A stretch of 22,724 bases of DNA, from assembly GCA_964534375.1 (NCBI GenBank), contig CAZHPN010000089.1:1-22724 (forward strand), given 5' to 3'. This DNA comes from an uncultured bacterium (GTDB taxonomy: Bacteria > Lernaellota > Lernaellaia > Lernaellales > Lernaellaceae). Shown piece after piece: positions 1 to 22,724 of this stretch. The position numbers and the translations under genes are program-made. Below the pieces are notes generated by a model that was given only the letters and a program-made list of their open reading frames with translations, was not told the DNA's origin and did no database searches. Positions within the stretch are counted from its first letter, which is position 1. Each line of letters begins with the position of its first letter.

Positions 1-1514
1 TACAATTCGTAGGGCCCCGTGCCGGCCGGGGCGGCCATGGCCATCCACCTGGCGTCGTCGCCGTGCAGGATGACCGGGAATTCCTTGTCCGCCTGCTCGC
101 CGCCGCCGCCCACCGCGAACACGTCCGACGCCGACGCGCCCCAGACGCCGCGCAAATCGTACGCCCCGCCCGGCGCGGCCGGCGCGTGCATCGCCAGCCA
201 CGCGGCGCCGCCGTCGTAGTGCAGAATCGTGCGCTTCGCGCCGACGGCGTAGACGTCGGTCGGCGACGCGCCCCAGACCGCCGCCAGGTCTTCGGCGACC
301 CCGCGGCTTTCCGGCGCCCACGCGCTGCCGTCGAAGTGCAGGGTCAGGCCCGCCGTGCCCACCACGCGCACCTCGGTCGCCGAGGCCCCGCCGATCGCGT
401 ACGGCAACGAGCCGCCCAGCGCTTTCGCCATGGGCAAGGCCAACCAGGCCGTTCCGTCGAAATGCAGCACGCGGCCGACCGCGACGCCGTCGTCGACCGC
501 GTAGCCGGTCGCGTACACATCCGACGATGAGGAGCCCCACACCGTTAGGAGCCGGCCGTTCTCGGCGCGGATGGACGCCGGCGCCCAGGCGGCGCCGTCG
601 TAATGGAGCAGCGCGCCGACCGGTTGGTGGTTGGCGTCGAGCTTCGTGCCGACCGCGTACACGTCGCCGCCGGAAACGCCCCAGATGCCGTCAAAGGCGT
701 AGTTGCCTTCCGGCAGCTTCATGGCCGACCACCGGTCGCCGTTGTAATGGAGAATCGTGCCCTGGTCGCCGACCGCGAAAATGTCCTTCGACGAATCGCC
801 CCAGACGCCGTACAGCGTGTAGGCGCCGAACGAGGTGTGCATGCCGGTCCACGTCTTGCCGTTGTAGCGCTCGACCGCCCCGACGGAGGCGCCGGTCTTC
901 GGGTCGAAGCACGTGCCGACCGCGTACACCTCGGTCGCCGAAACGCCCCACACGCCGTACACCGCGGAGCACCAGCCGACGCCGGTGATCGGCTTCCAGG
1001 CGTTGCCGTCGTACCGCATCGCCACGCCGTTCGGACCCGCCAGGTCGTACCCGACCGCGAACACGTTCGTCGCCGATGTGCCCCAGATGCCGGTCATCAC
1101 CAGCGTCGCTGCGCCGGTCGTGCCGAACCACGACGCGCCGTCATAGTGAATGATCGTGCCGCCCTCGCCGACCGCGACCACCATGGGCGACGTCGGGTCG
1201 TACCAGATCGCGTGCACTGCGTTGCCCTGCGGCTGCGCGTTTTCCCAGCACCAACCGTCGGCGCTGCAAACGCCGAGACCGCCGCCGTTGCCGTTGCCGT
1301 TGTCGTCGTCGCCGGCTTGATCGTCATCCGACGCGACGAAATCGGCGGCGGCGCCGAAGCCGCCATTGTTGATGTCGGGCGCCAGCGAATTCTCGTGGCG
1401 GTAGATGCGAGTCAGATCGGACGTGTCTTTGACGTGCGAGGCGTCGCAAGCGGCGGCAACCGCAATCGCGAAACCAGCGGCCAGCAGCGTCAAGGTAAAG
1501 CGTGCATTCTTCAT
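1..1514 (-). CDS. Secreted lipoprotein with short Asp-rich linker and tandem 'VWG-S--DV(Y/F)AVG...LH(Y/F)DG--W' beta-propeller-type repeats (3' partial, runs off the window)
   Basis: Translated by hand (not in the ORF track): GAGGG-N7-ATG at 1514, MKNARFTLTLLAAGFAIAVAAAC (lipobox-like), DDDQAGDDDN, then about 8-9 repeats such as IWGTSATNVFAVG, VWGVSATEVYAVG, VWGDSSKDIFAVG, VWGASPTDVYAVG. Frame stays open to the window edge. Confidence 0.85.
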   Translation of the reverse strand, partial: MKNARFTLTLLAAGFAIAVAAACDASHVKDTSDLTRIYRHENSLAPDINNGGFGAAADFVASDDDQAGDDDNGNGNGGGLGVCSADGWCWENAQPQGNAVHAIWYDPTSPMVVAVGEGGTIIHYDGASWFGTTGAATLVMTGIWGTSATNVFAVGYDLAGPNGVAMRYDGNAWKPITGVGWCSAVYGVWGVSATEVYAVGTCFDPKTGASVGAVERYNGKTWTGMHTSFGAYTLYGVWGDSSKDIFAVGDQGTILHYNGDRWSAMKLPEGNYAFDGIWGVSGGDVYAVGTKLDANHQPVGALLHYDGAAWAPASIRAENGRLLTVWGSSSSDVYATGYAVDDGVAVGRVLHFDGTAWLALPMAKALGGSLPYAIGGASATEVRVVGTAGLTLHFDGSAWAPESRGVAEDLAAVWGASPTDVYAVGAKRTILHYDGGAAWLAMHAPAAPGGAYDLRGVWGASASDVFAVGGGGEQADKEFPVILHGDDARWMAMAAPAGTGPYEL

Positions 1515-11877: not shown

Positions 11878-12115
11878 CGGGACTCCGGCGACCACGCCTC
11901 CGCCGCCAAGTCGGAAAACCGCATAATTTCAATAAGTTATAAGAAAATCATTCTTAAAAATAACAAAGCAAAATCGAACCGCGGACACAAAAAGTATTCA
12001 AGCGGTCTTTGCTGCGTCAAACCGCGGCCGGTTTGCGCGCGTTCTATTCTAAAAAACCGCGCCAGTCGGAATAGAACGCGACTCGTCTAAACTGACGCAA
12101 ACGAAAGGGGGCGCG

Positions 12116-13288
12116 ATGAAAAGCGCGCAAACCAAACGGCGGCGAGGCGGCGCGACGCCTTACAGGCACGAAGGCGGCTGGCGCGCTCCTTACGTTGACC
12201 TCGCGACCGGCCGCCGGCGGTTCAAGAAATTTGCGACCTATGATGAGGCGTTGGGGTTCATGGAGCGAGCGCGGGCGGCGCGGCGAGCGCAAAAAGACGG
12301 GATTTTGGCGGCTCCGCCCCCGCCGATGCCATTCCGCGAACTGTACGAGCAATGGCGCACGGCGCGGGGACAGCACAAGCGCTCCGCCGTGACCGACACG
12401 ATTCTTTTCGAGAAACACCTTCGGCCTTTCTTCGGCGAAATGGTCGTTACGCAAATCCAGACCGCGATGGTAGAGCGGTTCATGGGTCAACTGCGACGAA
12501 GGCGGCCGATCGTGCGGCCCGATGGTTCCGTTGACGACCGGCTTTCGCCGTCGAGTATCCGCGCCGTGCTGGCGCTGCTGCACACGGTCCTGCGCTACGG
12601 TCAGCGCACCGGGGCAGTCCAAACGCTGCCGCAACTCGACCGGCCGCGAGTGACCGTAAAAGAATATCCCTGCTTCACAACGGACGCCGAAGTTGCAACC
12701 TTCGTTCGCGCGGCCCGTGACGCCGGGCCGGACGTGCTCGCGATCTATGCCGGCGCGATCTACACAGGAGCTCGCCTGAGCGAATTGCGCGCCTTGCGAT
12801 GGGGGGACGTTGACTTCGATCGCGGACTCATTCGCATTGGCCGGAGCGGCGACGGGCCAACCAAAAGCGGCAAGGTGCGATTTGTCCCGCTCGCCGACGC
12901 GCTGGCGCCGATCCTCAAAGAACAAAAACTCCGGGTCGGCGACGGGTTCGCGTTATGCTTTCCCGGCCCGGATGGTCAGATGCTCCCGCGCATCAGCGCA
13001 ATTTTCTACCGGCGATTCAAGGCAATTTTGCGGGCCGCGAAGCTGCCGGACTTGCGATTTCACGATTTGCGACACAGTTTCGCGAGCCTGCTGGTTGCCA
13101 AAGGCGTGAACCTTTACACGGTCGGCAAGCTGTTGGGCCATTCCTCGCCGTTGATGACGGCGCGATATAGCCACCTGGCGCCGGACTCTTTCGCCGCCTT
13201 GCGCGGCATTTTCGGGCAATCGCCGCCGGCCGATGCGCCGGCGGATGTTGTGCAACTCAACCCCATCGAAAAAGGAAACGAAAAATGA
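12116..13288 (+). CDS. int: Phage-type tyrosine integrase
   Basis: Full catalytic set: TGARLSEL (R), PTKSG (K), FHDLRH (H-x-x-R), LGHS (H), TARYSH (Y). N-terminal arm-binding-like segment GWRAPYVDLATGRRRFKKFAT. Confidence 0.96.
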   Translation: MKSAQTKRRRGGATPYRHEGGWRAPYVDLATGRRRFKKFATYDEALGFMERARAARRAQKDGILAAPPPPMPFRELYEQWRTARGQHKRSAVTDTILFEKHLRPFFGEMVVTQIQTAMVERFMGQLRRRRPIVRPDGSVDDRLSPSSIRAVLALLHTVLRYGQRTGAVQTLPQLDRPRVTVKEYPCFTTDAEVATFVRAARDAGPDVLAIYAGAIYTGARLSELRALRWGDVDFDRGLIRIGRSGDGPTKSGKVRFVPLADALAPILKEQKLRVGDGFALCFPGPDGQMLPRISAIFYRRFKAILRAAKLPDLRFHDLRHSFASLLVAKGVNLYTVGKLLGHSSPLMTARYSHLAPDSFAALRGIFGQSPPADAPADVVQLNPIEKGNEK

Positions 13289-13494
13289 AGGAAACGAAGG
13301 CGAAAAAACTGTGGAACTACAGTGAAGCGGCGGAATTTCTCGGCTTGAAAAAGTCCACCTTGTACAGCATGGTTTCCCATCACCGCGTGCCGTGCTACCA
13401 CCTGAGTCAACGGTGCGTCCGCTTCGATCCGGCGAAGCTGGCGGAATGGTTGCGCGAGCGCGAGCAAATGCCCGCCGCCGCGGTCAACGGTTGA
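13285..13494 (+). CDS. Excisionase/AlpA-like HTH DNA-binding protein
   Basis: LWNYSEAAEFLGLKKSTLYSMV...VPCYHL...VRFDPAKLAEWL; start overlaps the integrase stop (ATGA). Confidence 0.88.
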   Translation: MKETKAKKLWNYSEAAEFLGLKKSTLYSMVSHHRVPCYHLSQRCVRFDPAKLAEWLREREQMPAAAVNG

Positions 13495-13503
13495 GGTGCG
13501 ACC

Positions 13504-14286
13504 ATGACCGCAAGACGCACACGCCGACCCGATCCGATCGACGACGACCCCAGCGACTTCGAAGGCGAGACCGAATGGGAGAATTACGCGTCGGCCCGCG
13601 AAACAGAACCGGCCGTCCGGCCGCCGTCGCTTTTCCTCGACGCCGGCGACGTTGACCTGCGCGAACTGCCGTATGACCAAGTTCCTGAAGTTGCAAGAAT
13701 GAACGGCCTCGCCTTTCATCAAGCGCTGGCGCGCGGCGACGTATTCGACGCGGCGGAATGGACCCACGACGCCGAACGCGGTGACCCCCGCGGCCGGCAC
13801 ACGTCGGCGTTTTGCGTGTTCCCGATTTTCGGCACGCACGCACGCGCCGTCGCCGATCGTTTGTGCGAGCGGCGCGGCGACGACTTGGCCCGCGGCGCCC
13901 GATGGCCGTACTGGGCGACTTTTTACACGTCGGTTCGACGCGATGGCGCCGGGCCTCAAATCGTCGCGCTCGTCCCGATGGCCGGCGAGTTCGCGAGCAA
14001 GCAGCACGCCGCGCTGTGGCGGTTCGTGCTGTCCGGTCTGCGCGAAACGGCACACCCGCACAAGATCATGACGCACTACGCCTTCGACGGCCGAATTGTT
14101 CCGTTGACGATCAACAGCCGCGCCTTCGTGCGCCAGCACGTCGGCAACTTGGCGCCCGCGGGCCGGTTTGCAACGCTGCCCGGGCGGCTTTTTCGGCCGT
14201 GCGACGACCTGGCGCCCGATGTTTTCAAGGCGATGGTTGCCGGGCGGCTGACGTTCGCGGCGTGGCGCACGTTGGTCGGCGTCTGA
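13504..14286 (+). CDS. Hypothetical protein, weak resemblance to a primase-polymerase (AEP-like) N-terminal domain
   Basis: GAGGTG RBS, operonic spacing. Segment ATFYTSVRRDGAGPQIVALVPMAGEFASKQHAALW resembles prim-pol motifs; function is uncertain. Confidence 0.6.
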   Translation: MTARRTRRPDPIDDDPSDFEGETEWENYASARETEPAVRPPSLFLDAGDVDLRELPYDQVPEVARMNGLAFHQALARGDVFDAAEWTHDAERGDPRGRHTSAFCVFPIFGTHARAVADRLCERRGDDLARGARWPYWATFYTSVRRDGAGPQIVALVPMAGEFASKQHAALWRFVLSGLRETAHPHKIMTHYAFDGRIVPLTINSRAFVRQHVGNLAPAGRFATLPGRLFRPCDDLAPDVFKAMVAGRLTFAAWRTLVGV

Positions 14287-14311
14287 CCCAACGCAGGCGG
14301 AGGGAGGATCC

Positions 14312-15121
14312 GTGTCAGCTACACGCCAGCCGCCCCCTTATCCCGGGGCACTGGTAAACAATTGGTTCAAGCGGCCCCGGTTCCCGCCGGGTGTGAAGGA
14401 ACGTCTCGGATACGCCGACCGGGCGGTTTTCGACGAACTTTGTGACCGCTGTTCGAACTCGCGTAAGCAGTACTATGAGACGAGCGTCCGCGACTTTGCC
14501 TCATCCGCAAATATCCCGAAAAGCACCATCGGCGACGCCCTCAAAAAATTCGAAGAAGCTGGCTTGGTTTTCATCTACCACGGCAACCGTAACGGGCTGC
14601 TCGACGGCCTGTTGATTATTCTGCTTACCGACATCGGCGGCGAGTGGCCACCCGACGACCACCCGATCATCATTGAGTCGTGCCAGCGGTTGGTCAATCG
14701 CCGGCGCCAGCCGTCCGCCGTGTCCGCCCCACCGGACACCGTGTCCGGCCCGGCGGACAACGTATGTCCGGCCCGCCGGACAAGCCCTCTCACTCCAACG
14801 CGCGCGCGAGAAGAGTTAATTCTCAAAGAGAAGAGTCTTAATTGCATTAACAGAGTAGTAAGAGAGAGATTGTCGCAATCCGCGGCCAAGCCAACCCTCG
14901 ATTTGATCGAAAGTTTCCTCGGAGAACTGTCGCCGAACTTCGTTGCAATCGGTCGCCTGCCTCGGTCCGAACAAGGCCCGGCCCTCGCCGCAACGCTTGC
15001 CGGACTGCCGGCCCGCGGCGCGACGTTGACGGCCGCGGAACTCGCCGGGCTGGCAAACGCGATCGCCGAACATTTCGGACTCTCCGCGCATGACGCCAAC
15101 GCGGCGGCTGGCGGGGCGTGA
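14312..15121 (+). CDS. Putative replication initiator (N-terminal winged HTH, internal iterons)
   Basis: GGAGG RBS and GTG start; SVRDFASSANIPKSTIGDALKKFEEAGLV is wHTH-like; dyad repeats and an A-rich tract in the mid-gene linker. Confidence 0.7.
   Translation: MSATRQPPPYPGALVNNWFKRPRFPPGVKERLGYADRAVFDELCDRCSNSRKQYYETSVRDFASSANIPKSTIGDALKKFEEAGLVFIYHGNRNGLLDGLLIILLTDIGGEWPPDDHPIIIESCQRLVNRRRQPSAVSAPPDTVSGPADNVCPARRTSPLTPTRAREELILKEKSLNCINRVVRERLSQSAAKPTLDLIESFLGELSPNFVAIGRLPRSEQGPALAATLAGLPARGATLTAAELAGLANAIAEHFGLSAHDANAAAGGA
14721..14870. other. Putative replication origin: three 18-bp dyad iterons plus A/T-rich tract
   Basis: TGTCCG-N6-CGGACA at 14721-14738, 14742-14759 and 14765-14782, followed by a purine-rich, AT-rich stretch at about 14810-14870. 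Confidence 0.65.
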
Positions 15122-15154
15122 GCGACTGGCCTATCTTCGAGAGGAGGACCTCAA

Positions 15155-15993
15155 ATGGCGATGCAGCGGAAAACACTGAAGCTGATCGAATATGCGATAC
15201 AAATCCTCGCCGATGGCTACCCGATGACGGTTCGCCAAGTGTTCTATCAACTCGTTTCCGAATAGTCGTAAGAAACAATCGAAACCGATACCAAGCGGTC
15301 AGCGACGCGCTTGCGAACGCTCGACAACAGGATATGATCCCGTGGGAATGGATTGAGGATCGCTTGCGGCGCCCGCGCCCGGTTCCCATGTGGTCCGGCC
15401 TGCCTGAGTTTGCCGAGACCTGCCGGACAGCCTACCGCCGCGATGTTTGGGCCGATCAACCGGGTTATGTGGAAGCGTGGCTTGAAAAAGACGCCTTGTC
15501 GGGAATTTTTGAAAACGAGCTTGAACCCTACGGCGTGACGTTGAACGTCGGGCGCGGTTATGATGGTTGGGATAGCCTTCACAAGGCCGCGGAACGATAC
15601 AAGGCCGTGTCCGAGGGCAAACACGTCACCGTGCTTTACTTCGGCGACTTTGACCCCAGCGGCGAGGATATGTACCGCAGTTTGGGGGACAGACTGGCGC
15701 GGCTGGGGACCGAGCCGGAAATTATCAAGTGCGCCCTCACAGCCGATGACATGCACCGTTACAACCTGCCGCCGAACCGCGCAAAGACAACCGACAGCCG
15801 AACGCGGAAATTCGTCGCCGAGAATGGCGGCGACGAAACCGCGGAACTCGACGCCTTGCCCGTGACCGTGCTACGCGACCGACTGCGACAAGAAGTCGAA
15901 AGCCGAATGGACCTCGACGCTTTGAACGCGACCAAAGAACGCGAAGAAGCAGAACGCGCCCTGCTGGTGGACTTCCTGAAAGACGCGAAATAA
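15155..15993 (+). pseudogene. Topoisomerase VI A-subunit/Spo11-like WHD-Toprim protein split by a frameshift near 15260
   Basis: GAGGAGG RBS and ATG 15155 give MAMQRKTLKLIEYAIQILADGYPMTVRQVFYQLVSE* (TAG 15263-15265). The protein continues in the -1 frame: VVRNNRNRYQAVS...IPWEWIEDR...EAWLEKDAL...GRGY...VLYFGDFDPSGEDM...ELDAL. Confidence 0.75.
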
Positions 15994-16401
15994 GGGGCCG
16001 GAGGGTGGGGCCAGGGCCAGCCGGCCAGCGGGGCGGGGCCGGGGCGGTCAGCGAATCCGGGGACAAACGGCGTCGGTATCGGTCAGTTGATACTTTTTTG
16101 ATACTTTATGTGTTTTGGCGTCCATAACGCCCTCTCAGTGAGACAAGGGCGTCGCCACTTGACTTTTTATCAATCAATCAATCAATTGCAATGGGCGAAG
16201 GCCATTGGAAACGGCAACCACGCCCCCCCGGGTCAAAAAAACGAGGTGCCTACCGTCGCGCGCGACCCCGAAAACCTCGCATCAGTCGCGCGCCAGACGG
16301 GCCCCCCCTGTTTTTCGGCAAATCCGACGCATTCTGAAAAATCGCGCCATTGTTGACAGGTTTTTCTTTTGGCTATCGTTGGGAAAACGGAGGAAGTCAC
16401 G

Positions 16402-16884
16402 ATGCTCCAAGCCCAAAGAACCAGCAACGACCCACGCACCCGCGGCTTTTGTCCGGCCTTCACGCGGCCCGGCGAGTTGGGGCGCTTCCGTTTCGCGGCG
16501 GCCGTTGCCGCGGCGCACGGTCAACCCGACAAGGCGGCGCTATACGATCTGGACGCGGGCCTGCAAATCTACCAACTCTCCGGGGCGGGTCACTCGATTC
16601 ACTATGCCGCGACGATCACGCGGCCGGGCGAAGTCAATCCGTGCGCCTTTTACGTTTTCACCGAAACCGCCCCGCCGGCGGCGCCGACGCGAGAGGCGAT
16701 TGCGGCGACAATCGCGGCGCGCAACCCGTCGGCGGGCGGTCAAGACAAGACGGCGCAACGAACGGCCTATGAAAAACTCATGGCCGTGAAAGTTCCGCAT
16801 GAGACACGGGCAGACCTCGCCCGCGCGACCTACGAAAAAATCCGCGCCGCCGGGCGGCGATCGCTTCAGGGAGACTCAAAATGA
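16402..16884 (+). CDS. Hypothetical protein
   Basis: GGAGG RBS 8 nt before ATG 16402 (start reassigned from 16369); stop overlaps the next start. Confidence 0.65.
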   Translation: MLQAQRTSNDPRTRGFCPAFTRPGELGRFRFAAAVAAAHGQPDKAALYDLDAGLQIYQLSGAGHSIHYAATITRPGEVNPCAFYVFTETAPPAAPTREAIAATIAARNPSAGGQDKTAQRTAYEKLMAVKVPHETRADLARATYEKIRAAGRRSLQGDSK

Positions 16885-17138
16885 GCAAAGACGCATTCGG
16901 GGAAATGAAAAGCTTTGACCGCGTTGCGGTAGACGATTCGGGCGAGATTTGGTTACCGGCGGACACGCCGGGCGAGGCCCTCGCGCAAGAGGCGTGCAAG
17001 GCGGCACGGGCCGCGTTTTGGGGCACAAACCGTCCGACTCCGGCCGTCTTCGAACTTCGCAAAAAAGGCCCGGACGCCGAAGTTTCGTTGCCCCCCGTGA
17101 AGTCCTACTACCCCCGCAAGGGCCGGGGCGGCGACTGA
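16881..17138 (+). CDS. Hypothetical protein
   Basis: GGGAG RBS; ATGA and TGATG overlaps on both sides. Confidence 0.65.
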   Translation: MSKDAFGEMKSFDRVAVDDSGEIWLPADTPGEALAQEACKAARAAFWGTNRPTPAVFELRKKGPDAEVSLPPVKSYYPRKGRGGD

Positions 17139-17860
17139 TGATCGACGACCCGACGACCGCCCCGCCGACCGAGAGTCCGCCCGTCGGAGAGGCGCCAGTG
17201 GAGTTCGTTACTCGGTTGGGTTTGCGAGTCAGGCGCTGTCGGGCGCATCGGCGCGACGGTAAACAATGCTCGGCGCCGGCGTGCGCCGGAAAATTAGTTT
17301 GTCGAATGCACGGCGCGCACGCCGGCAGACCGGACGCCGCACAATTTGCGCGCGACGTTTTGAACACTCCCCAGCGACGCAAGGCGTTGTCGGAAACGAT
17401 GCGCGGCAACCAACTACGCCGCAAAGCTCCTGCGCCTCTCACACCGGCCGAGCAAGCAGCGGCGGCCGAGTTGCGGGCGCGGTTCGCCGACGAATATTTT
17501 CTCGACGGCGGCGCCGATGCGCTCACACTCGATTCGATCGTTTTTGCCGAAATGCTGGCGCGGCGGGCGCGCCAAAGCTATCTCGACAATCCGACCAAAG
17601 GGAATTGCGCCGACGTTTTGGTCCGCGAACGTCATCTTAACGACCTGTTGAAAACGGCCGCGGTTCGTCGCGACGTGCGCCGAAAAAACTTCCCAGCCGA
17701 TGTGGAAACGCTGTTGCGTATTCAGGCCGGTGTCGATCGACTGCGGCAAGGCGAAGCGACCGACACGCCGCGACTGCCGGCGGCGACGGAAGTTTTTGAC
17801 CTGGTGGAAGTGGAAAACTTGCCAGCCGATTCGGGGCTGCTCCCGGGCAGTCAACGATGA
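17138..17860 (+). CDS. HGGxSTG-like zinc-motif protein, probable terminase small subunit
   Basis: Start reassigned to ATG 17138 (TGATG overlap). RCRAHRRDGKQCSAPACAGKLVCRMHGA matches the C-x-C-x-C-x-H pattern of HGGxSTG domains, followed by a helical region. Confidence 0.6.
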   Translation: MIDDPTTAPPTESPPVGEAPVEFVTRLGLRVRRCRAHRRDGKQCSAPACAGKLVCRMHGAHAGRPDAAQFARDVLNTPQRRKALSETMRGNQLRRKAPAPLTPAEQAAAAELRARFADEYFLDGGADALTLDSIVFAEMLARRARQSYLDNPTKGNCADVLVRERHLNDLLKTAAVRRDVRRKNFPADVETLLRIQAGVDRLRQGEATDTPRLPAATEVFDLVEVENLPADSGLLPGSQR

Positions 17861-18046
17861 TGAACCAAAAAACGGCGGCGTGCTTCTCCTCCGTCGCGCG
17901 TTGCCGTTCGGGAGCGGTTGGCCCCAGCCGCTCCCATTTTTCTCAAACCGAAAACGCGCCTCCTCCGTCGTCCTGCCGAGTCGCGTTGAAGGCGGGCGCC
18001 GTCCGGATGGTCGGCGCCCGCCCGTTCTATTTCGTGAGGTGACGCC

Positions 18047-18220
18047 ATGACAACGAAACGCGAAGAACTCACGGTCGACCCGTCGGCGACGAAACTTGAG
18101 GAACCCCTGACCGGCGATGACGCCAGCACCCCGGCCGCCGACGACCCGCCGCGGCGCCGCTGGGGTGACGGAAAATGGGGCCACGGCAAATGGGGCCGAA
18201 ACATCGGCAAGGGTGACTGA
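18047..18220 (+). CDS. Small 57-aa protein with WG-repeat C-terminus
   Basis: Below the ORF-track cutoff. GAGGTG RBS; MTTKREELTVDPSATKLEEPLTGDDASTPAADDPPRRRWGDGKWGHGKWGRNIGKGD*; ends 2 nt before the next ATG. Confidence 0.6.
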   Translation: MTTKREELTVDPSATKLEEPLTGDDASTPAADDPPRRRWGDGKWGHGKWGRNIGKGD

Positions 18221-18222
18221 CC

Positions 18223-20295
18223 ATGGCGCGCACGATTCGCACGACATTTATGGCCGATGCCGACCCGCACCAACTCGGCCTGCAACTCGCGGGCGTTCAA
18301 CAACGCGGCGTCAAGTCGGGCTGTGCGCTGTCGGCGGCCCCGTCGCCATTTTCAACGCCGACGCCGGCAGTACAGATCGGCGCGGGCGAATTTTGGACCG
18401 TTGACGGAATGCAGGTTCAAGAAGACGGTTTGGGCTCGAACGTCGCAACCCCAGCCGATCCCGCCGACCCGACGAATCCGCGCGTTGACGTGGTTTGCGC
18501 CGATTTTTGGTATGTCGATTCGCCGGAAAAGCTTCCGTTTTATGAAATCCTCGAAGGCACGCCGGCCGAGAATCCAATTCCGACCGACACGACGGGCAAC
18601 AACCAGATTGTCATCGGCTACGCGCTGCTGCCGGCGAACGCCGTGGTCTACTCGGCGTTCTATCCGGCCCCGATGGAATGGCGGTACAACTGCCTACTCC
18701 GCGACGGCCAAGAGCAGGTTATCAACGGCGCGTTCGCAGCGGCGAAGCTGGTTTTTTGCCGGAAAACCTTGCCCTTCGCGCCGCTCGGCAATCCGTTGGT
18801 CGGCGGCGGCGGGGGCTGTCTCGCCGGCTGGAATCTGTTTTATCTCCCGCCCGGCACGCTCGCCGACGGGGCCGCGATCAATACGAACGCTCCCTCGAGC
18901 CCGGGCGCTGGCAACGGCGGCTGGGGGCTGCCGGCGGCGTTTTTCAATCAACTCGGACTCGGACAAGCGACGACGCTGCAAGCGATCGTTTCCGGGCTCG
19001 TGACGCAAATCACGGCCGCGTCGGGAAGTTTCAACCCGCTGACCGATGCAACATCGCTCGCCGACCGGCTCGCCGTGACGATGGCGGCGAACGGGCAAAC
19101 CCTGGTCAACCATGCCGATCTTTTCGACGTTGACAGTTACACGGGCCTTTTGGGCGCGGCAAAGCGGGCGCCGGATGCCGATCGCGGTTTGTTTTTCACA
19201 GACCTTCTCGGCAACGTCGCGCCGACCTTGAACCTGCCCGGCATGAACGCGCCCGGCGCGCTGCTGCCCGGCGCGCAACTTCACTCGCCGTCGCTCGCGA
19301 AGGGCCTCACGGGCTACAGCGGCTCCTTGCCCTTCCAAATCAACTCTCAAATGAGCGGTTCGACGCCGCAGTTCCGCGCGCTGGGCGGCCCGTGGATTTC
19401 AATCGTTCGCGAGCCCGCGTCCGTGACGTTCCGCGAGTTCATCCTGTCGTCGGCCGACAATCTGGTCCGCATCGGCCTGACAATCAATTTCGTGACCTTC
19501 GCGCCGCAGCCGGGCGAGCCCGCGACCGACTATCCGTTCGGCTTCACCGTGGCGCGCTTCGGCGGCGCCGTGCTGTCGCACGATGCCCGGCACCTGAGCT
19601 ATGACGACCTCGACGACGGGACGATCTTCGGCGTGTGCGGCGCTCTTTGGCAATTCGTCGCGCGACGGCAAATCACCGACGACATTTCGATGTGGCAAGG
19701 CACGACGACCCCGCGCACGCCGGCGAATTACAACGTCAACCCGCTGGCGATCCCGACGGATACGACGTTGGCGGTCAACTCCAGCGGGCAAATCGGCGCG
19801 AAGCCGAGCAGCCGGCCAATGATGGCGCTGGCGTTATCGAACCAAGTTGTGATTGACAACACCGGACTCGTCACGGTGCTCCCCTGGAACGACCTGAGCG
19901 AGTTTCCGGCGCAAGGCAGCCTGTTCACCGTCGTCGGGGGATCAAGCCCGAACGGGCAGATTCAGGTCAATAAAGCGTGCAAGGTCCGTATTTCCGGACT
20001 CGTGACGTTCCAGACGACCTACTCCGGCACGCCGCCCGCGGATGACAACGTGGAATTATCCGTGCAACAATCGTCGGGAATGCAGCGGAATTGCGGGCAG
20101 AAATTCGTCAACGTCGGCGCGAAACAGTTTGAGCCAATTCAAATTCCAGGGATCGTCCTCAATCTCGCAGCGGGAGAAACTTTTTCGATCAATTGTATTT
20201 ACAACCGCGGCGGGTCGGATGGCGCCGTTTCGCTCGTCGGCGGGACCGAATACTATCAGGTCGTGTACTGCATCATCGAAGAATGCGACTACTGA
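18223..20295 (+). CDS. Putative virion tail/receptor-binding protein (690 aa)
   Basis: N-terminal GVKSGCALS...VQIGAG...ADPTNPRVDVV...ILEGTPAENP resembles phage minor tail proteins; G/P/T-rich body; C-terminal ~160 aa is beta-rich and C1q/TNF-like (GQIQVNKACKVRISGLVTF...LNLAAGETFSI). Confidence 0.6.
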   Translation: MARTIRTTFMADADPHQLGLQLAGVQQRGVKSGCALSAAPSPFSTPTPAVQIGAGEFWTVDGMQVQEDGLGSNVATPADPADPTNPRVDVVCADFWYVDSPEKLPFYEILEGTPAENPIPTDTTGNNQIVIGYALLPANAVVYSAFYPAPMEWRYNCLLRDGQEQVINGAFAAAKLVFCRKTLPFAPLGNPLVGGGGGCLAGWNLFYLPPGTLADGAAINTNAPSSPGAGNGGWGLPAAFFNQLGLGQATTLQAIVSGLVTQITAASGSFNPLTDATSLADRLAVTMAANGQTLVNHADLFDVDSYTGLLGAAKRAPDADRGLFFTDLLGNVAPTLNLPGMNAPGALLPGAQLHSPSLAKGLTGYSGSLPFQINSQMSGSTPQFRALGGPWISIVREPASVTFREFILSSADNLVRIGLTINFVTFAPQPGEPATDYPFGFTVARFGGAVLSHDARHLSYDDLDDGTIFGVCGALWQFVARRQITDDISMWQGTTTPRTPANYNVNPLAIPTDTTLAVNSSGQIGAKPSSRPMMALALSNQVVIDNTGLVTVLPWNDLSEFPAQGSLFTVVGGSSPNGQIQVNKACKVRISGLVTFQTTYSGTPPADDNVELSVQQSSGMQRNCGQKFVNVGAKQFEPIQIPGIVLNLAAGETFSINCIYNRGGSDGAVSLVGGTEYYQVVYCIIEECDY

Positions 20296-20681
20296 GGCAT
20301 CTCGCAAGCGTTCACGCACGTCGCCATGGCCGTACAGTTTTCGCGGTATTCGATAATGCAATTCGCGATGCAACCGCCAAGACCGAGACCATCAGCGCCG
20401 CCCTGACACGCCGCTTGCGCGCCATTTTCATCAAGTGGCGTACCGACGGCGTTTCTGAATTCTAGCTCGCACGTCCCGCAGGCGATCCCGTAAAGTTCCG
20501 AGCAATTCCACCCGCCCTCCGTGTCATCATCGGCGGCCGGGCTGGCGTCGTCATCGGCCGGCGAGGCGTCATCGTCAACCGGCACGTAGACGGTTTTGGT
20601 TTTCGTCGGCGAGGCGCAAGCGAACGCGATGAAAGCAGCGGCGAGGGCCAAGGCCAACGTCGCGAAAAATGTCTGCTTCAT
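20289..20681 (-). CDS. Small Cys-rich lipoprotein with DDDASPA linker
   Basis: Start reassigned to ATG 20681 (AAGGGG RBS): MKQTFFATLALALAAAFIAFAC, DDDASPADDDASPAADDD, then a Cys-rich domain. Confidence 0.8.
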   Translation of the reverse strand: MKQTFFATLALALAAAFIAFACASPTKTKTVYVPVDDDASPADDDASPAADDDTEGGWNCSELYGIACGTCELEFRNAVGTPLDENGAQAACQGGADGLGLGGCIANCIIEYRENCTAMATCVNACEMPQ

Positions 20682-20891
20682 GGCCAACCCCTTTTTGGAA
20701 AGATGCGCTTGCGAGACACTCATAGCGCAATCCGGTTTGAGCGTCAATTATGATTTTGAACTCGCCAACCACGCCAGGATGCCCTAGAATCGCGCCGCAG
20801 GGCGGGCGTTTATGCGTCCGCCCTGTGGCCGATCGCGCCTGGGGCGCTGGCCTGGCGCTGAAATCGGGCAGGAATTGAGGCAAGCCGGGTT

Positions 20892-21371
20892 TTACGGCCG
20901 GCAAGGCGAAAATACCTTCCATTCTTTGCCGCCGCCAATGTCGAACGCGCCGACTTCGCGGTATCCGTCGGGGCAGACCGACGGCCCGCAAAGCGTATTG
21001 CTCGGCAGCACGCGCGACGCGCGGGCCTCAACATCGCCAACGAGGGTCACGCCCAGCTTGTTCGGCATCGAATCGAGATGTTCGATCGCCTGATGCAACC
21101 GATGCTTCGCTCTCAGCACGGCGGATTCCGCCGCCAGCAAAGCGGCCGCGGCGCCGGGCGCGACCGACCGCGCCTCGCGAAGAAAGTCCAGAATTTCGAT
21201 CAGTTCACCTTCCGCGCCGGCCAATTCGCCGTCGATGCGGGCGCCGGTGTCCGCGATCGCCGCCAAGTCGGCCGCGAGCGCCGGCGCCGCCGCGTCGATC
21301 AACTTGCGGATCTGTTCGAGAGTCAGGAACCCCGGCCAACCTTTACGCGAATCTGCTTTGTGTGGGGACAT
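20892..21371 (-). CDS. Hypothetical protein starting with a tyrosine-recombinase box-I-like fragment
   Basis: AAGGAG RBS; PGFLTLEQIRKLIDAA...AIADTGARIDGEL; no HxxR, LGH or catalytic Tyr motif. Confidence 0.65.
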   Translation of the reverse strand: MSPHKADSRKGWPGFLTLEQIRKLIDAAAPALAADLAAIADTGARIDGELAGAEGELIEILDFLREARSVAPGAAAALLAAESAVLRAKHRLHQAIEHLDSMPNKLGVTLVGDVEARASRVLPSNTLCGPSVCPDGYREVGAFDIGGGKEWKVFSPCRP

Positions 21372-21400
21372 AGGAACTCCTTGTGTTTAAGCAAAGAAAA

Positions 21401-21462
21401 GTGCGAGAGCGCTTCCGGACACAAGGACCGGCGGGGGCCTCACGGCTTCCCAACTCTCGCAC
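21401..21462 (-). ncRNA. C4/CI-like antisense RNA (phage P1/P4 immunity type)
   Basis: Closing stem GUGCGAGAGU/GCUCUCGCAC, GCC-GUGA-GGC GNRA hairpin, CCGG-UCCUUGUGU-CCGG hairpin, AAGC junction; complementary targets upstream and downstream. Confidence 0.72.
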
Positions 21463-21529
21463 AGCCTGATTTCTCGTTCGAAGATCGCCATTTGTCGTCA
21501 TGGCCACGCCCTGTGTTATAAGCGATGCA

Positions 21530-21559
21530 ACCATGCCACAAACGGCGGGGGCGTGTCAA
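21530..21559 (-). promoter_or_regulatory. Putative promoter of the antisense-RNA operon
   Basis: On the minus strand TTGACA-N18-CATGGT with a TG extension; the -10 is weak. Confidence 0.45.
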
Positions 21560-21733
21560 CGGCAAAAAGCTAACGATGGTGCGGCGACGGTCGCCGCACC
21601 TGTGGCCGGCGCTTCTGTTTTCGCCACCGTGGCGAAATCTGTGGCGTTGGTGGCGAAACGGGCGCGCCACCATCGGGCCGCCGCTCCCGAGCCGCGACGG
21701 TCGCGCCTCGGGAATATCCTGACGCGCCCGGCG

Positions 21734-21962
21734 CGTTTAGATAAACGGCGTCATAGGTGCCGCAACGGTTGCGCCACCCGCGGGGCGCCGAGCCCCGAAC
21801 GGCGCCGGGCGCCGTTCGGGAAACGCCTGTGCGAACAAAGCGACACCGTGGCGTTTAGATAAGCGGCGTCATAGGTGCGGCCACGGTGTCCGCACCCGAA
21901 CAAACCGAACAAAACGAGCAAACGGCGCCCGGCGCCTTTAGAGAAACGGCGTCATAGGTTGC
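21734..21962 (-). repeat. Three direct 28-bp dif-like repeats
   Basis: Minus strand: GGCACCTATGA-CGCCGT-TTATCTAAACG (21734-21761), CGCACCTATGA-CGCCGC-TTATCTAAACG (21852-21879), GCAACCTATGA-CGCCGT-TTCTCTAAAGG (21935-21962). The repeat is certain; the dif identity is inferred. Confidence 0.75.
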
Positions 21963-22088
21963 CGACACCCTGAGTATTCAAAAAGTATCACATAATGCGT
22001 AAAAGTCGGCATGGACGGACACAGGTTGACAACCTACAAAATCTATAATAAACAAGTAGATATGACCTGGACAAAGACTAATCCTAGT

Positions 22089-22100
22089 GAAAGTGTCAAG
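22089..22100 (+). repeat. Putative attR core GAAAGTGTCAAG
   Basis: Identical to 11866-11877; marks the end of the AT-rich element terminus. Confidence 0.6.
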
Positions 22101-22117
22101 TTGTTGCGGTGGGCCAA

Positions 22118-22159
22118 CGGGATTCGGGATTCGGGATTCGGGGTTCGGGACGCGGGAAG
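22118..22159. repeat. 7-bp tandem repeat (CGGGATT x3 plus 3 degenerate copies)
   Basis: cgggatt cgggatt cgggatt cggggtt cgggacg cgggaag. Confidence 0.8.
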
Positions 22160-22398
22160 AAGGAAAAAGGAAAAAGGAGCCGGGCCGCGTCGGTTAGTTG
22201 CTGGTTGCGCGAACATCGGGCTCGTAGCTCTCCCATGTTTCGCGTTTTCTCCACGATTCCCATGCCTTCCACGCTTCAATGAGCCGCGGCGCGCGGCGGC
22301 GCGCCGGAAACCCGGCGCCACAGCTCGCTCGAGGCGTCGCCGGCCGGCCGCGGCGGCTGTCTCGTTTTTTGGTGAACTTGGTGAAAGTTGGAAAACGT

Positions 22399-22427
22399 TT
22401 GACAATGCCATCCAGCCGCGGGATCAT
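22399..22427 (+). promoter_or_regulatory. Putative sigma70 promoter
   Basis: TTGACA-N17-GATCAT, about 48 bp upstream of ATG 22475. Confidence 0.5.
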
Positions 22428-22474
22428 CGGGTGCAAGAGAGAGAACGAAGTGCGAACCCCTTGGGAGATGGGCG

Positions 22475-22724
22475 ATGAAATGGACTCTGCTCTGCCTGCT
22501 GGCGCTTTTGGCGGCGCTGGCGATCGCCTGCTCGCCGCCTGATCGAACGAACCACCAAATTCTTCACGACGACGTTTCGCCAGGCGGCGGCGATGATGAC
22601 GATTTCAGTCCAACGGTAGACGACGACTCGTCGCCGGCGGACGATGACGACAACGATGACGACGACAACGACGACTCGTCGCCGGCGGCCGATGACGACG
22701 ACAATGACGACTCGTCGCCGGCGG
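22475..22724 (+). CDS. Host lipoprotein with Asp-rich low-complexity linker (3' partial)
   Basis: Translated by hand: GGGAG RBS, MKWTLLCLLALLAALAIAC-SPPDRTNHQ...DDDSSPADDDDNDDDDNDDSSPAADDDDNDDSSPA, open to the window edge. Confidence 0.85.
   Translation, partial: MKWTLLCLLALLAALAIACSPPDRTNHQILHDDVSPGGGDDDDFSPTVDDDSSPADDDDNDDDDNDDSSPAADDDDNDDSSPA

Follow-up and report, generated by a model that had tools for sequence, protein, structure and literature searches.

We analyzed the whole of contig CAZHPN010000089.1 (22,724 bp; the window), which belongs to the draft genome (6.3 Mb, about 63% G+C) of an uncultured bacterium of the Lernaellaceae. On its minus strand, a 62-nucleotide (nt) RNA element is complementary, through one loop and one junction, to a site on either side of it, and the downstream site overlaps the ribosome-binding site of the open reading frame (ORF) that starts at 21371. 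This arrangement is best explained, with a probability that we put at roughly 0.6, by an antisense-RNA switch built like P1 C4 and P4 CI and located in the 5' leader of ORF 21371. The reading is based on the fold of the RNA, the accessibility of its pairing segments, the two-site complementarity with its statistics and a geometry identical to that of known C4 RNAs; a promoter, a 3' end or termination, action in trans and an effect on translation are its proposed parts. An earlier description made from the letters alone (the original prediction) had called this a C4/CI-type antisense RNA and the only recognizable regulator of its element. Every feature it named is present on the minus strand at the correct coordinates, and the C4/CI logic of the layout held, whereas membership of the C4 family and the role of sole regulator did not.

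The proposed switch module is compact, at about 190 nt. A putative promoter can be read on the minus strand as TTGACA (21559-21554), an 18-nt spacer and TGG-CATGGT (21538-21530); a transcript starting near 21523 would carry the upstream site at its 5' end. This bipartite, a1b1-like site consists of CGCUU (21524-21520), aua and ACACAGGG (21516-21509), pairs with the RNA with one G-U pair, and is separated by a 46-nt spacer (from 21524-21509 to 21462-21401) from the 62-nt element. The U-tract UUUUCUUU (21400-21393) follows directly after the outer stem, and then comes the a2b2-like downstream site, made of GCUU (21392-21389), aa and ACACAAGGA (21386-21378). Its b part overlaps the Shine-Dalgarno (SD) sequence AAGGAG of ORF 21371 (21382-21377), covering five of the six SD bases, 6 nt before the AUG at 21371. 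The gene whose ribosome-binding site is covered in this way (P0001, 20892-21371, minus strand) has 159 codons.

The minimum free energy (MFE) fold of the isolated RNA is a three-way junction of -31.6 kcal/mol (z = -1.98, with folds as good in 6 of 200 shuffles). The 10-bp outer stem pairs GUGCGAGAGU (21462-21453) with GCUCUCGCAC (21410-21401) and encloses hairpin 1 (21452-21432, loop GUGA), directly followed by hairpin 2, in which the stems CCGG/CCGG (21431-21428 and 21418-21415) carry the 9-nt loop b', UCCUUGUGU (21427-21419). The junction a', AAGC(G) at 21414-21410, is single-stranded. When the whole 167-nt leader was folded, the three-way junction was kept, and the probability of being unpaired was 0.83 for the hairpin-2 loop, 0.81 for the junction, 0.97 for a1, 0.60 for b1 and 0.09 for the SD. 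In the read-through form of this leader the U-tract is able to pair with the SD (UUCUUUG:CAAGGAG), and such a pairing would, in the modeled fold, leave a2 and the first part of b2 exposed in a loop. The U-tract after the outer stem may represent an intrinsic-terminator-like 3' end of the small RNA, judging from a 10-bp stem followed by UUUUCUUU, as in a rho-independent terminator, although the 42-nt branched interior is atypical. A terminator scan that allowed loops of 3-8 nt made no call there, because the "loop" is branched and has this 42-nt interior.

The complementarity of the loop and junction to both flanking sites is far beyond chance on four independent tests. First, the unpaired loop and junction alone, with the stem masked, were scanned for duplexes against the 45,410 20-nt windows of both strands of the contig. 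The top match was, trivially, the antisense of the RNA gene itself, and the next two were the proposed sites, so that the downstream site (-17.0 kcal/mol) is the best and the upstream site (-15.8 kcal/mol) the second-best non-self partner. Including the stem bases in the scan filled its output with chance G+C-rich pairings, so that version was set aside. Second, the DNA pattern GCTT-N0-6-ACACARGG occurs only four times on the two strands of the 6.3-Mb genome (12.6 million positions): at the two sites flanking the RNA on its own strand, at the RNA gene's own antisense and at one place on another contig (C70:8606-8592). The last lies antisense to an intergenic or gene-start region, has no RNA-like fold and was taken as chance. 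Third, among 2000 dinucleotide shuffles of the 150-nt flanks, the observed energy was reached by 3 on the upstream side, by none on the downstream side and by none on both.

The fourth test used look-alike hairpins of the form GCCGG-UCCUNNNNN-CCGG-AAGC as a negative control, taken from at least 119 loci of other genomes and from 3 viral loci. Among the matches listed, a much looser filter gave one weak site in 12 of 119 genome loci and in 1 of 3 viral loci, and an upstream and a downstream site together in 0 of 122; in the window, for comparison, the paired runs are 8 and 9 long and the gaps 3 and 2. These tests bear most directly on the view that the structure is an ordinary spacer or terminator after an upstream unit and that its complementarity to the flanks is coincidental, which we consider very unlikely. 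Such a view is compatible with a fold z-score of only -1.98, with the many hairpins of G+C-rich genomes and with the lack of conservation data, but it must face two sites that no shuffle and, among the matches listed, no look-alike reproduced together, that rank first and second in the contig and one of which lies exactly on the SD. Moreover, no coding-like ORF ends just upstream, the frames 21440-21673 and 21343-21534 having flat profiles of G+C content by codon position.

Known C4 RNAs showed the same arrangement when they were scanned blind. Six RNAs that score 69-81 bits on the Rfam C4 model (P4, P1, PY54, phiKO2, NAR688 and MStein-2023a) served as the positive control, and in all six the two best flank matches were one upstream and one immediately downstream a-then-b site, with energies of -10 to -21.8 kcal/mol; their loops differ between phages, and the sites differ along with them. 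In the P1 record, a1 (48255-48261), b1 (48269-48276), a2 (48423-48429) and b2 (48452-48459) are annotated around c4 (48343-48419) and icd (from 48470), and these annotations agree with the scan. In the P1 c4 fold, the hairpin-2 loop contains b' and the junction contains a'; a lies 5' of b on both sides, and b2 directly adjoins the start of icd. The statement of the original prediction that the layout agrees with the a1b1/a'b'/a2b2 scheme of P1 C4 and with the seqA/seqB/seqC scheme of P4 CI is supported by the P1 record and by all six known members.

The RNA of the window is built in the same way. It has an outer stem, a hairpin 1 with a tetraloop, a hairpin 2 with a loop in the 9-12-nt range and a junction in the 4-8-nt range, in an order that matches the Rfam C4 consensus (MFE and centroid folds against the consensus structure lines); the hairpin-2 stem GCCGG/CCGG and a UCCU-containing loop are common to both. 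Its loop b' and junction a' are complementary to a-then-b sites on both sides on the same strand, and the b half of the downstream site overlaps the ribosome-binding site of the gene that follows. With P1/P7 C4 (RF01695; immI: c4-icd-ant) it has in common the order of hairpin 1, hairpin 2 and single-stranded junction, b' as the hairpin-2 loop and a' as the junction, and a-then-b pairs upstream (a1b1) and just downstream (a2b2) on one transcript. The loop-target energies are also similar (-12.2 and -10.5 kcal/mol, against -11.7 and -8.7 in P1), and where b2 of P1 abuts the start of the first gene, the downstream site here lies on the ribosome-binding site. Unlike P1 C4, it has a U-tract directly after the stem, whereas the 3' end of P1 C4 is a processed end. 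Further differences are a shorter a' (4-5 nt; 7 nt in P1), shorter a-b spacers (2-3 nt; 7 and 22 nt in P1, and 7-24 nt in the comparison with the C4 family), an orphan downstream gene in place of icd/ant and a host that is no proteobacterium.

The comparison extends to P4 CI, whose junction and loop pair with an upstream site GUGAGAA...UUCACAGG (8667-8644 of the P4 record) and a downstream site GUGAGAA...UUCACAGGAGG (8417-8370); the loop target UUCACAGGAGG contains an SD-like AGGAGG. The GCCGG/CCGG hairpin-2 stem is common to both RNAs, and their loops are related (UCCUGUGAA in P4, UCCUUGUGU here), but the P4 spacers are much longer. Rfam and protein-family searches detected no P4 alpha-type primase, cII or IsrK/seqA-like RNA in the window. 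P4-like islands carry an integrase and an AlpA-type helix-turn-helix (HTH) protein, and both kinds of gene are found in the neighborhood of the RNA. The N15-type linear plasmid prophages PY54 and phiKO2 (C4-icd-antA) also resemble the window in having a C4-type RNA directly upstream of a small first gene and a bipartite target 1-7 nt after the RNA. Unlike the RNA of the window, theirs reach 72-78 bits with RF01695, and an IsrK-like RNA lies ahead of them, joined in phiKO2 by a c4-a1b1 match. IsrK and C4 homologues have been equated with seqA and CI RNA in P4 (Barquist et al. 2013, PMC3632133), and P4 CI reportedly makes transcription terminate prematurely, according to the titles of Forti 2002 and Sabbattini 1995 cited in PMC3632133.

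By analogy with these systems, a promoter near 21559-21530 may start a transcript that begins with the a1b1-like site and then folds into the 62-nt three-way junction. The outer stem and UUUUCUUU would end part of the transcripts and release a small RNA, with stem and U-tail as its 3' end and possibly as an Hfq handle, because the host encodes Hfq (74 bits). On read-through transcripts, the exposed hairpin-2 loop UCCUUGUGU, an anti-Shine-Dalgarno sequence, and the junction AAGC would pair with GCUU-aa-ACACAAGGA, either within the same molecule or from another copy. This pairing would cover AAGGAG and block ribosome access to ORF 21371, leaving the 159-aa orphan protein untranslated. The upstream site would compete for the same loop and junction, perhaps serving as a decoy before processing of the leader, or it would provide a second contact in the manner of P4.

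The main rival, serious although we think it unlikely, is a purely cis-acting leader from which no stable small RNA accumulates. Its loop would form a pseudoknot either with the 5' site, leaving the ribosome-binding site free, or with the downstream site, blocking it, and the stem and U-tract would act as an attenuator. The RNA and both sites do lie on one presumed transcript, within 150 nt, and both sites compete for one loop; in the read-through form, the U-tract could pair with the SD, and an RNA-library contig described below continues through the U-tract into the ORF. The geometry, however, is shared with RNAs of established trans action, released small RNAs usually end in a stem with a U-tail, and the host has Hfq. 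Pairing of a' with a2 in cis would also have to bridge an intact 10-bp outer stem, and the leader contains no evident ligand- or signal-sensing element.

Several observations weigh against the antisense switch as we describe it. Action in trans and in cis would look alike at the level of sequence. A consensus promoter scan made no call at 21559-21530, where the -10 element fits at only three of six positions, the fold z-score is modest, and the RNA evidence amounts to one low-depth contig that gives neither strand nor ends. The a'-a pairing is short, with 4-5 bp and -3.3 and -4.2 kcal/mol compared with -8.4 in P1. The outer stem has 10 bp compared with 17 bp in P1, and it is flanked by ..AGGCU and UUUUCUUU in place of the conserved AAUUAUGG 5' motif and CCACC 3' tail, which are absent here. 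These conserved flanks are visible in five of the six control alignments (P4 reads GUCAAUGG/GCCAUC); the 17-bp stem and the flanks are linked to RNase P processing. To the same side belong the covariance searches. Rfam at gathering thresholds gave no match in the whole window, and at E <= 10 no C4, c4-a1b1 or isrK match on 21250-21700 (451 nt). Over the whole genome, RF01695 (clan CL00128; gathering score 45 bits) produced a single 17.5-bit match, on another contig, compared with 68.8-80.6 bits for P4, P1 and four other phages as controls. A second model, R2, built from five P4-type members, found P1 c4 from outside its training set at 49.2 bits (E 1e-10), whereas on the window with filters off its 38 matches at E <= 10 (best 14.1 bits) included none overlapping 21401-21462. 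Finally, no homologue of the RNA was found in the family, phylum, viral and paralogue-locus searches or, among the matches listed, in the pattern searches, and the only other copy of the RNA region, on a metagenome contig, is identical across the region.

The assignment to the C4 family, for which a check against the Rfam models had been proposed, is therefore not borne out, there being no Rfam match and a miss by R2. The Rfam search was sensitive to weak C4 matches, as it returned one of 26.1 bits in a relative (G001), which proved to be an ordinary terminator behind a stop codon; with about 143 candidates scored per genome, none of the 17 genomes of the phylum had a C4 match over the cut-off. 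In the reciprocal direction, model R1 misses P4 CI. Across the 17 phylum genomes it recognized only the genome of origin, apart from an 18.5-bit match in G009 (E 0.3), and a DNA search of the eight genomes of the family likewise returned only the own genome. Among 15 viral loci with relatives of ORF 15118-15993, R1 gave two plain hairpins of about 11 bits, and at nine loci around relatives of the neighboring lipoprotein gene only terminator-like hairpins.

The hairpin-2 pattern GCCGG-TCCT-N5-CCGG-AAGC occurs at no fewer than 119 loci (at least 119) in genome contigs and at 3 in viral contigs. On 80 of the at least 119 loci, R1 made 22 matches at E <= 1, the best of 23.8 bits compared with 113.8 for the window itself, and all 22 were rejected as homologues, being centered on the pre-selected 22-mer. 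With a scaffold pattern that left the loop free, viral contigs gave no match and metagenome contigs gave one, on a 45-kb contig that is 99.9% identical to the window and whose four differences all fall in the Asp-rich repeat at 22696-22705, far from the RNA. Taken together, it is well supported that the RNA works like C4/CI, and its membership of the family is unproven; it could be a very diverged C4 homologue or a convergent design.

The regulated gene is an orphan. ORF 21371 has a coding-like G+C content at the first, second and third codon positions (GC1/2/3) of 0.69/0.51/0.76, and its protein belongs to no Pfam, PHROG or NCBIfam family. Against 5.8 billion clusters the protein finds only itself, and against 1.84 billion representatives itself plus one marginal coiled-coil match (E 2e-4). 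An Atlas model of P0001 (predicted local distance difference test [pLDDT] 0.69, predicted template modeling score [pTM] 0.42) had no structural match with a template modeling score, normalized by query, of 0.5 or more. The 52-codon ORF described as running through the RNA (21501-21343, minus strand) exists as an open frame. Judged by codon composition it is probably no gene, since its GC1/2/3 of 0.49/0.60/0.51 is unlike that of ORF 21371; a 63-codon version of it matched no family.

This frame leads to a further alternative, in which a 52-residue leader peptide (21501-21343), translated through the structure and across the start of ORF 21371, couples or uncouples expression, and the "upstream site" is the ribosome-binding region of the peptide. 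Beyond the open frame and a GGG 7 nt before its AUG, little speaks for such a peptide: its GC3 is 0.51, against 0.72-0.77 for genes of this genome, it has no family match, and the second, better site and the junction complementarity would go unexplained. We give it hardly any credence.

Public sequencing runs provide a weak hint of transcription. Ten runs contain parts of 20200-22200, the region used to select them, and three are metatranscriptome libraries. In one of these (X9), a 167-nt contig at 21317-21483, of unreadable strand, is identical to the window (depth 3.1, no other letters) and spans the RNA, the downstream site and the start of ORF 21371. In the other two, contigs lie at 20025-20675 and at 20869-21039 and 22217-22404, respectively. 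The RNA-library contigs have depths of 2.4-4.9, give no strand or ends and may include DNA carry-over; gaps in their cover of 19500-22724 carry no meaning, as these are contigs and the runs were selected by 20200-22200.

With regard to distribution, the account of Weinberg et al. 2010 (PMC2864571) assigns c4 antisense RNA to "Proteobacteria, phages" and c4-a1b1 to gamma-Proteobacteria and phages, and C4-type RNAs appear as textbook examples of RNA-based phage immunity in a 2025 review (PMC12197685). A full-text literature search found no C4-type RNA outside Proteobacteria, which does not prove their absence, and the phylum studied here is sparsely sampled, with 17 species-level genomes examined. 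On this background we put forward, tentatively and at less than even odds, that the RNA is the first representative of a separate, non-proteobacterial lineage of bipartite antisense RNAs of the C4/CI type. Such a lineage would be extremely diverged or independently evolved, would have an intrinsic-terminator end instead of being cut from a long tRNA-like stem, and would regulate an orphan gene that sits, in an uncultured wetland bacterium, on an island carrying an integrase. If the module functions as proposed, it would widen the range of the C4/CI regulatory design and offer a compact, fully defined unit of about 190 nt as a seed for members missed by sequence models trained on enterobacterial phages. 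A search by logic, for a loop and junction complementary to both flanks, recovered six of six known members and, among the matches listed, 0 of 122 controls. If the reading is true, the loop-plus-junction, two-target design would be a solution of general use, for the immunity of mobile elements or for gene control, and one to which current covariance models are blind.

A tyrosine integrase, recognized by protein-family match, lies upstream in the contig (12116-13288), and its stop is overlapped by a 69-aa HTH_17/AlpA-like ORF on the plus strand (13285-13494; HTH_17 E 1.3e-9, Phage_AlpA E 4e-4), which from these matches is likely an excisionase or AlpA-type regulator. ORF 14312-15121 has weak winged-helix and replication-initiator matches. 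It contains three tandem 19-nt palindromic repeats of the TGTCCGGCCCGCCGGACAA type (14721-14783, plus strand), spaced 21 and 23 nt, whose iteron-like arrangement suggests an origin inside a rep gene. The phrog_6247 protein at 15118-15993 has relatives on 15 viral contigs (34-63% identity), and these 15 loci have no other gene in common with the window. Several further ORFs have no matches, and there are no structural genes. On one of the viral contigs (IMGVR_UViG_3300035336_000091; L011:8487-9697, plus strand), three type II hammerhead ribozymes of 40-47 bits, above the gathering score, lie within 1.2 kb just upstream of the relative of ORF 15118-15993.

Three direct repeats of 22 nt are found at 21728-21981 (plus strand), 170-420 nt upstream of the proposed promoter, with cores at 21736-21757, 21854-21875 and 21937-21958 spaced 118 and 83 nt. 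They have TTTAGA(T/G)AA(A/G)CGGCGTCATAGG in common, and each carries a CGTTTA-GA-TAAACG-type palindrome, which is perfect in the first. The motif occurs only here in the genome and was absent from the 16 other phylum genomes and from viral contigs; from their form, the repeats could be operator, iteron or recombinase arm sites. The RNA is therefore not the only candidate regulator, as had been claimed, since the HTH_17/AlpA-like ORF, the weak winged-helix ORF 14312-15121 and the three operator-like palindromes are also present. The notion that it is the immunity switch of a mobile element is a plausible analogy: the integrase and HTH proteins nearby agree with it, but neither relatives of the regulated gene nor borders of an element were found. 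In detail, direct repeats (att) flanking 12000-22400 and a tRNA in the window were both searched for in vain. The left-flank protein is present in all eight family genomes, the 1.5-kb flanks have no common neighbors and no syntenic empty site was found; the right-flank protein, whose family has 261 matches in the genome, was useless as a synteny marker.

Downstream of ORF 21371, a long G+C-rich hairpin without a U-run (GCCGCAGGGCGGGCG...CGTCCGCCCTGTGGC, 20790-20833) lies between the ORF stop and a promoter-like motif of the next gene, and by its position it is likely the transcript end of the RNA-controlled unit. The next gene (20289-20747, minus strand) is lipoprotein-like: its product combines a signal peptide that ends in Cys with an Asp-rich linker (DDDxSPADDD) and a C-terminal domain rich in Cys. 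A paralogue of 67% identity lies on a different contig (G000:C91:4184-4564, minus strand); the upstream motif ATAATTGACG is present in both, and no RNA lies upstream of the paralogue. The paralogue is preceded by TTGACG-17-TATGCC with GTTTTTGG before the -10 element, similar to the putative promoter at 21559-21530. Judging from its upstream sequence, the lipoprotein gene (20747-20289) appears to have its own promoter, and its paralogue lacks the RNA; therefore, the RNA probably controls ORF 21371 alone.

The signal-plus-linker module of this lipoprotein has 35 matches in the genome. The secreted protein at 22475-22724, which continues in L002:4066-6037, and likewise that at 18-1232 (minus strand), has a long Asp-rich repeat. 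Repeats of about 40 residues (ILHYDG..W...G.WG.S.SDVFAVG) characterize the secreted protein, and its family, with 261 matches in the genome and 0-45 in relatives, represents a very large lineage-specific expansion. In one DNA run, a single joint 20576>22118, with only 21 letters on one side, adjoins a simple repeat of the GGGATTC type. This repeat (22118-22148) reaches a depth of 138 in that run, compared with 5-7 for its neighbors, and has several loose ends; it is a sequence common to many other molecules in that metagenome.

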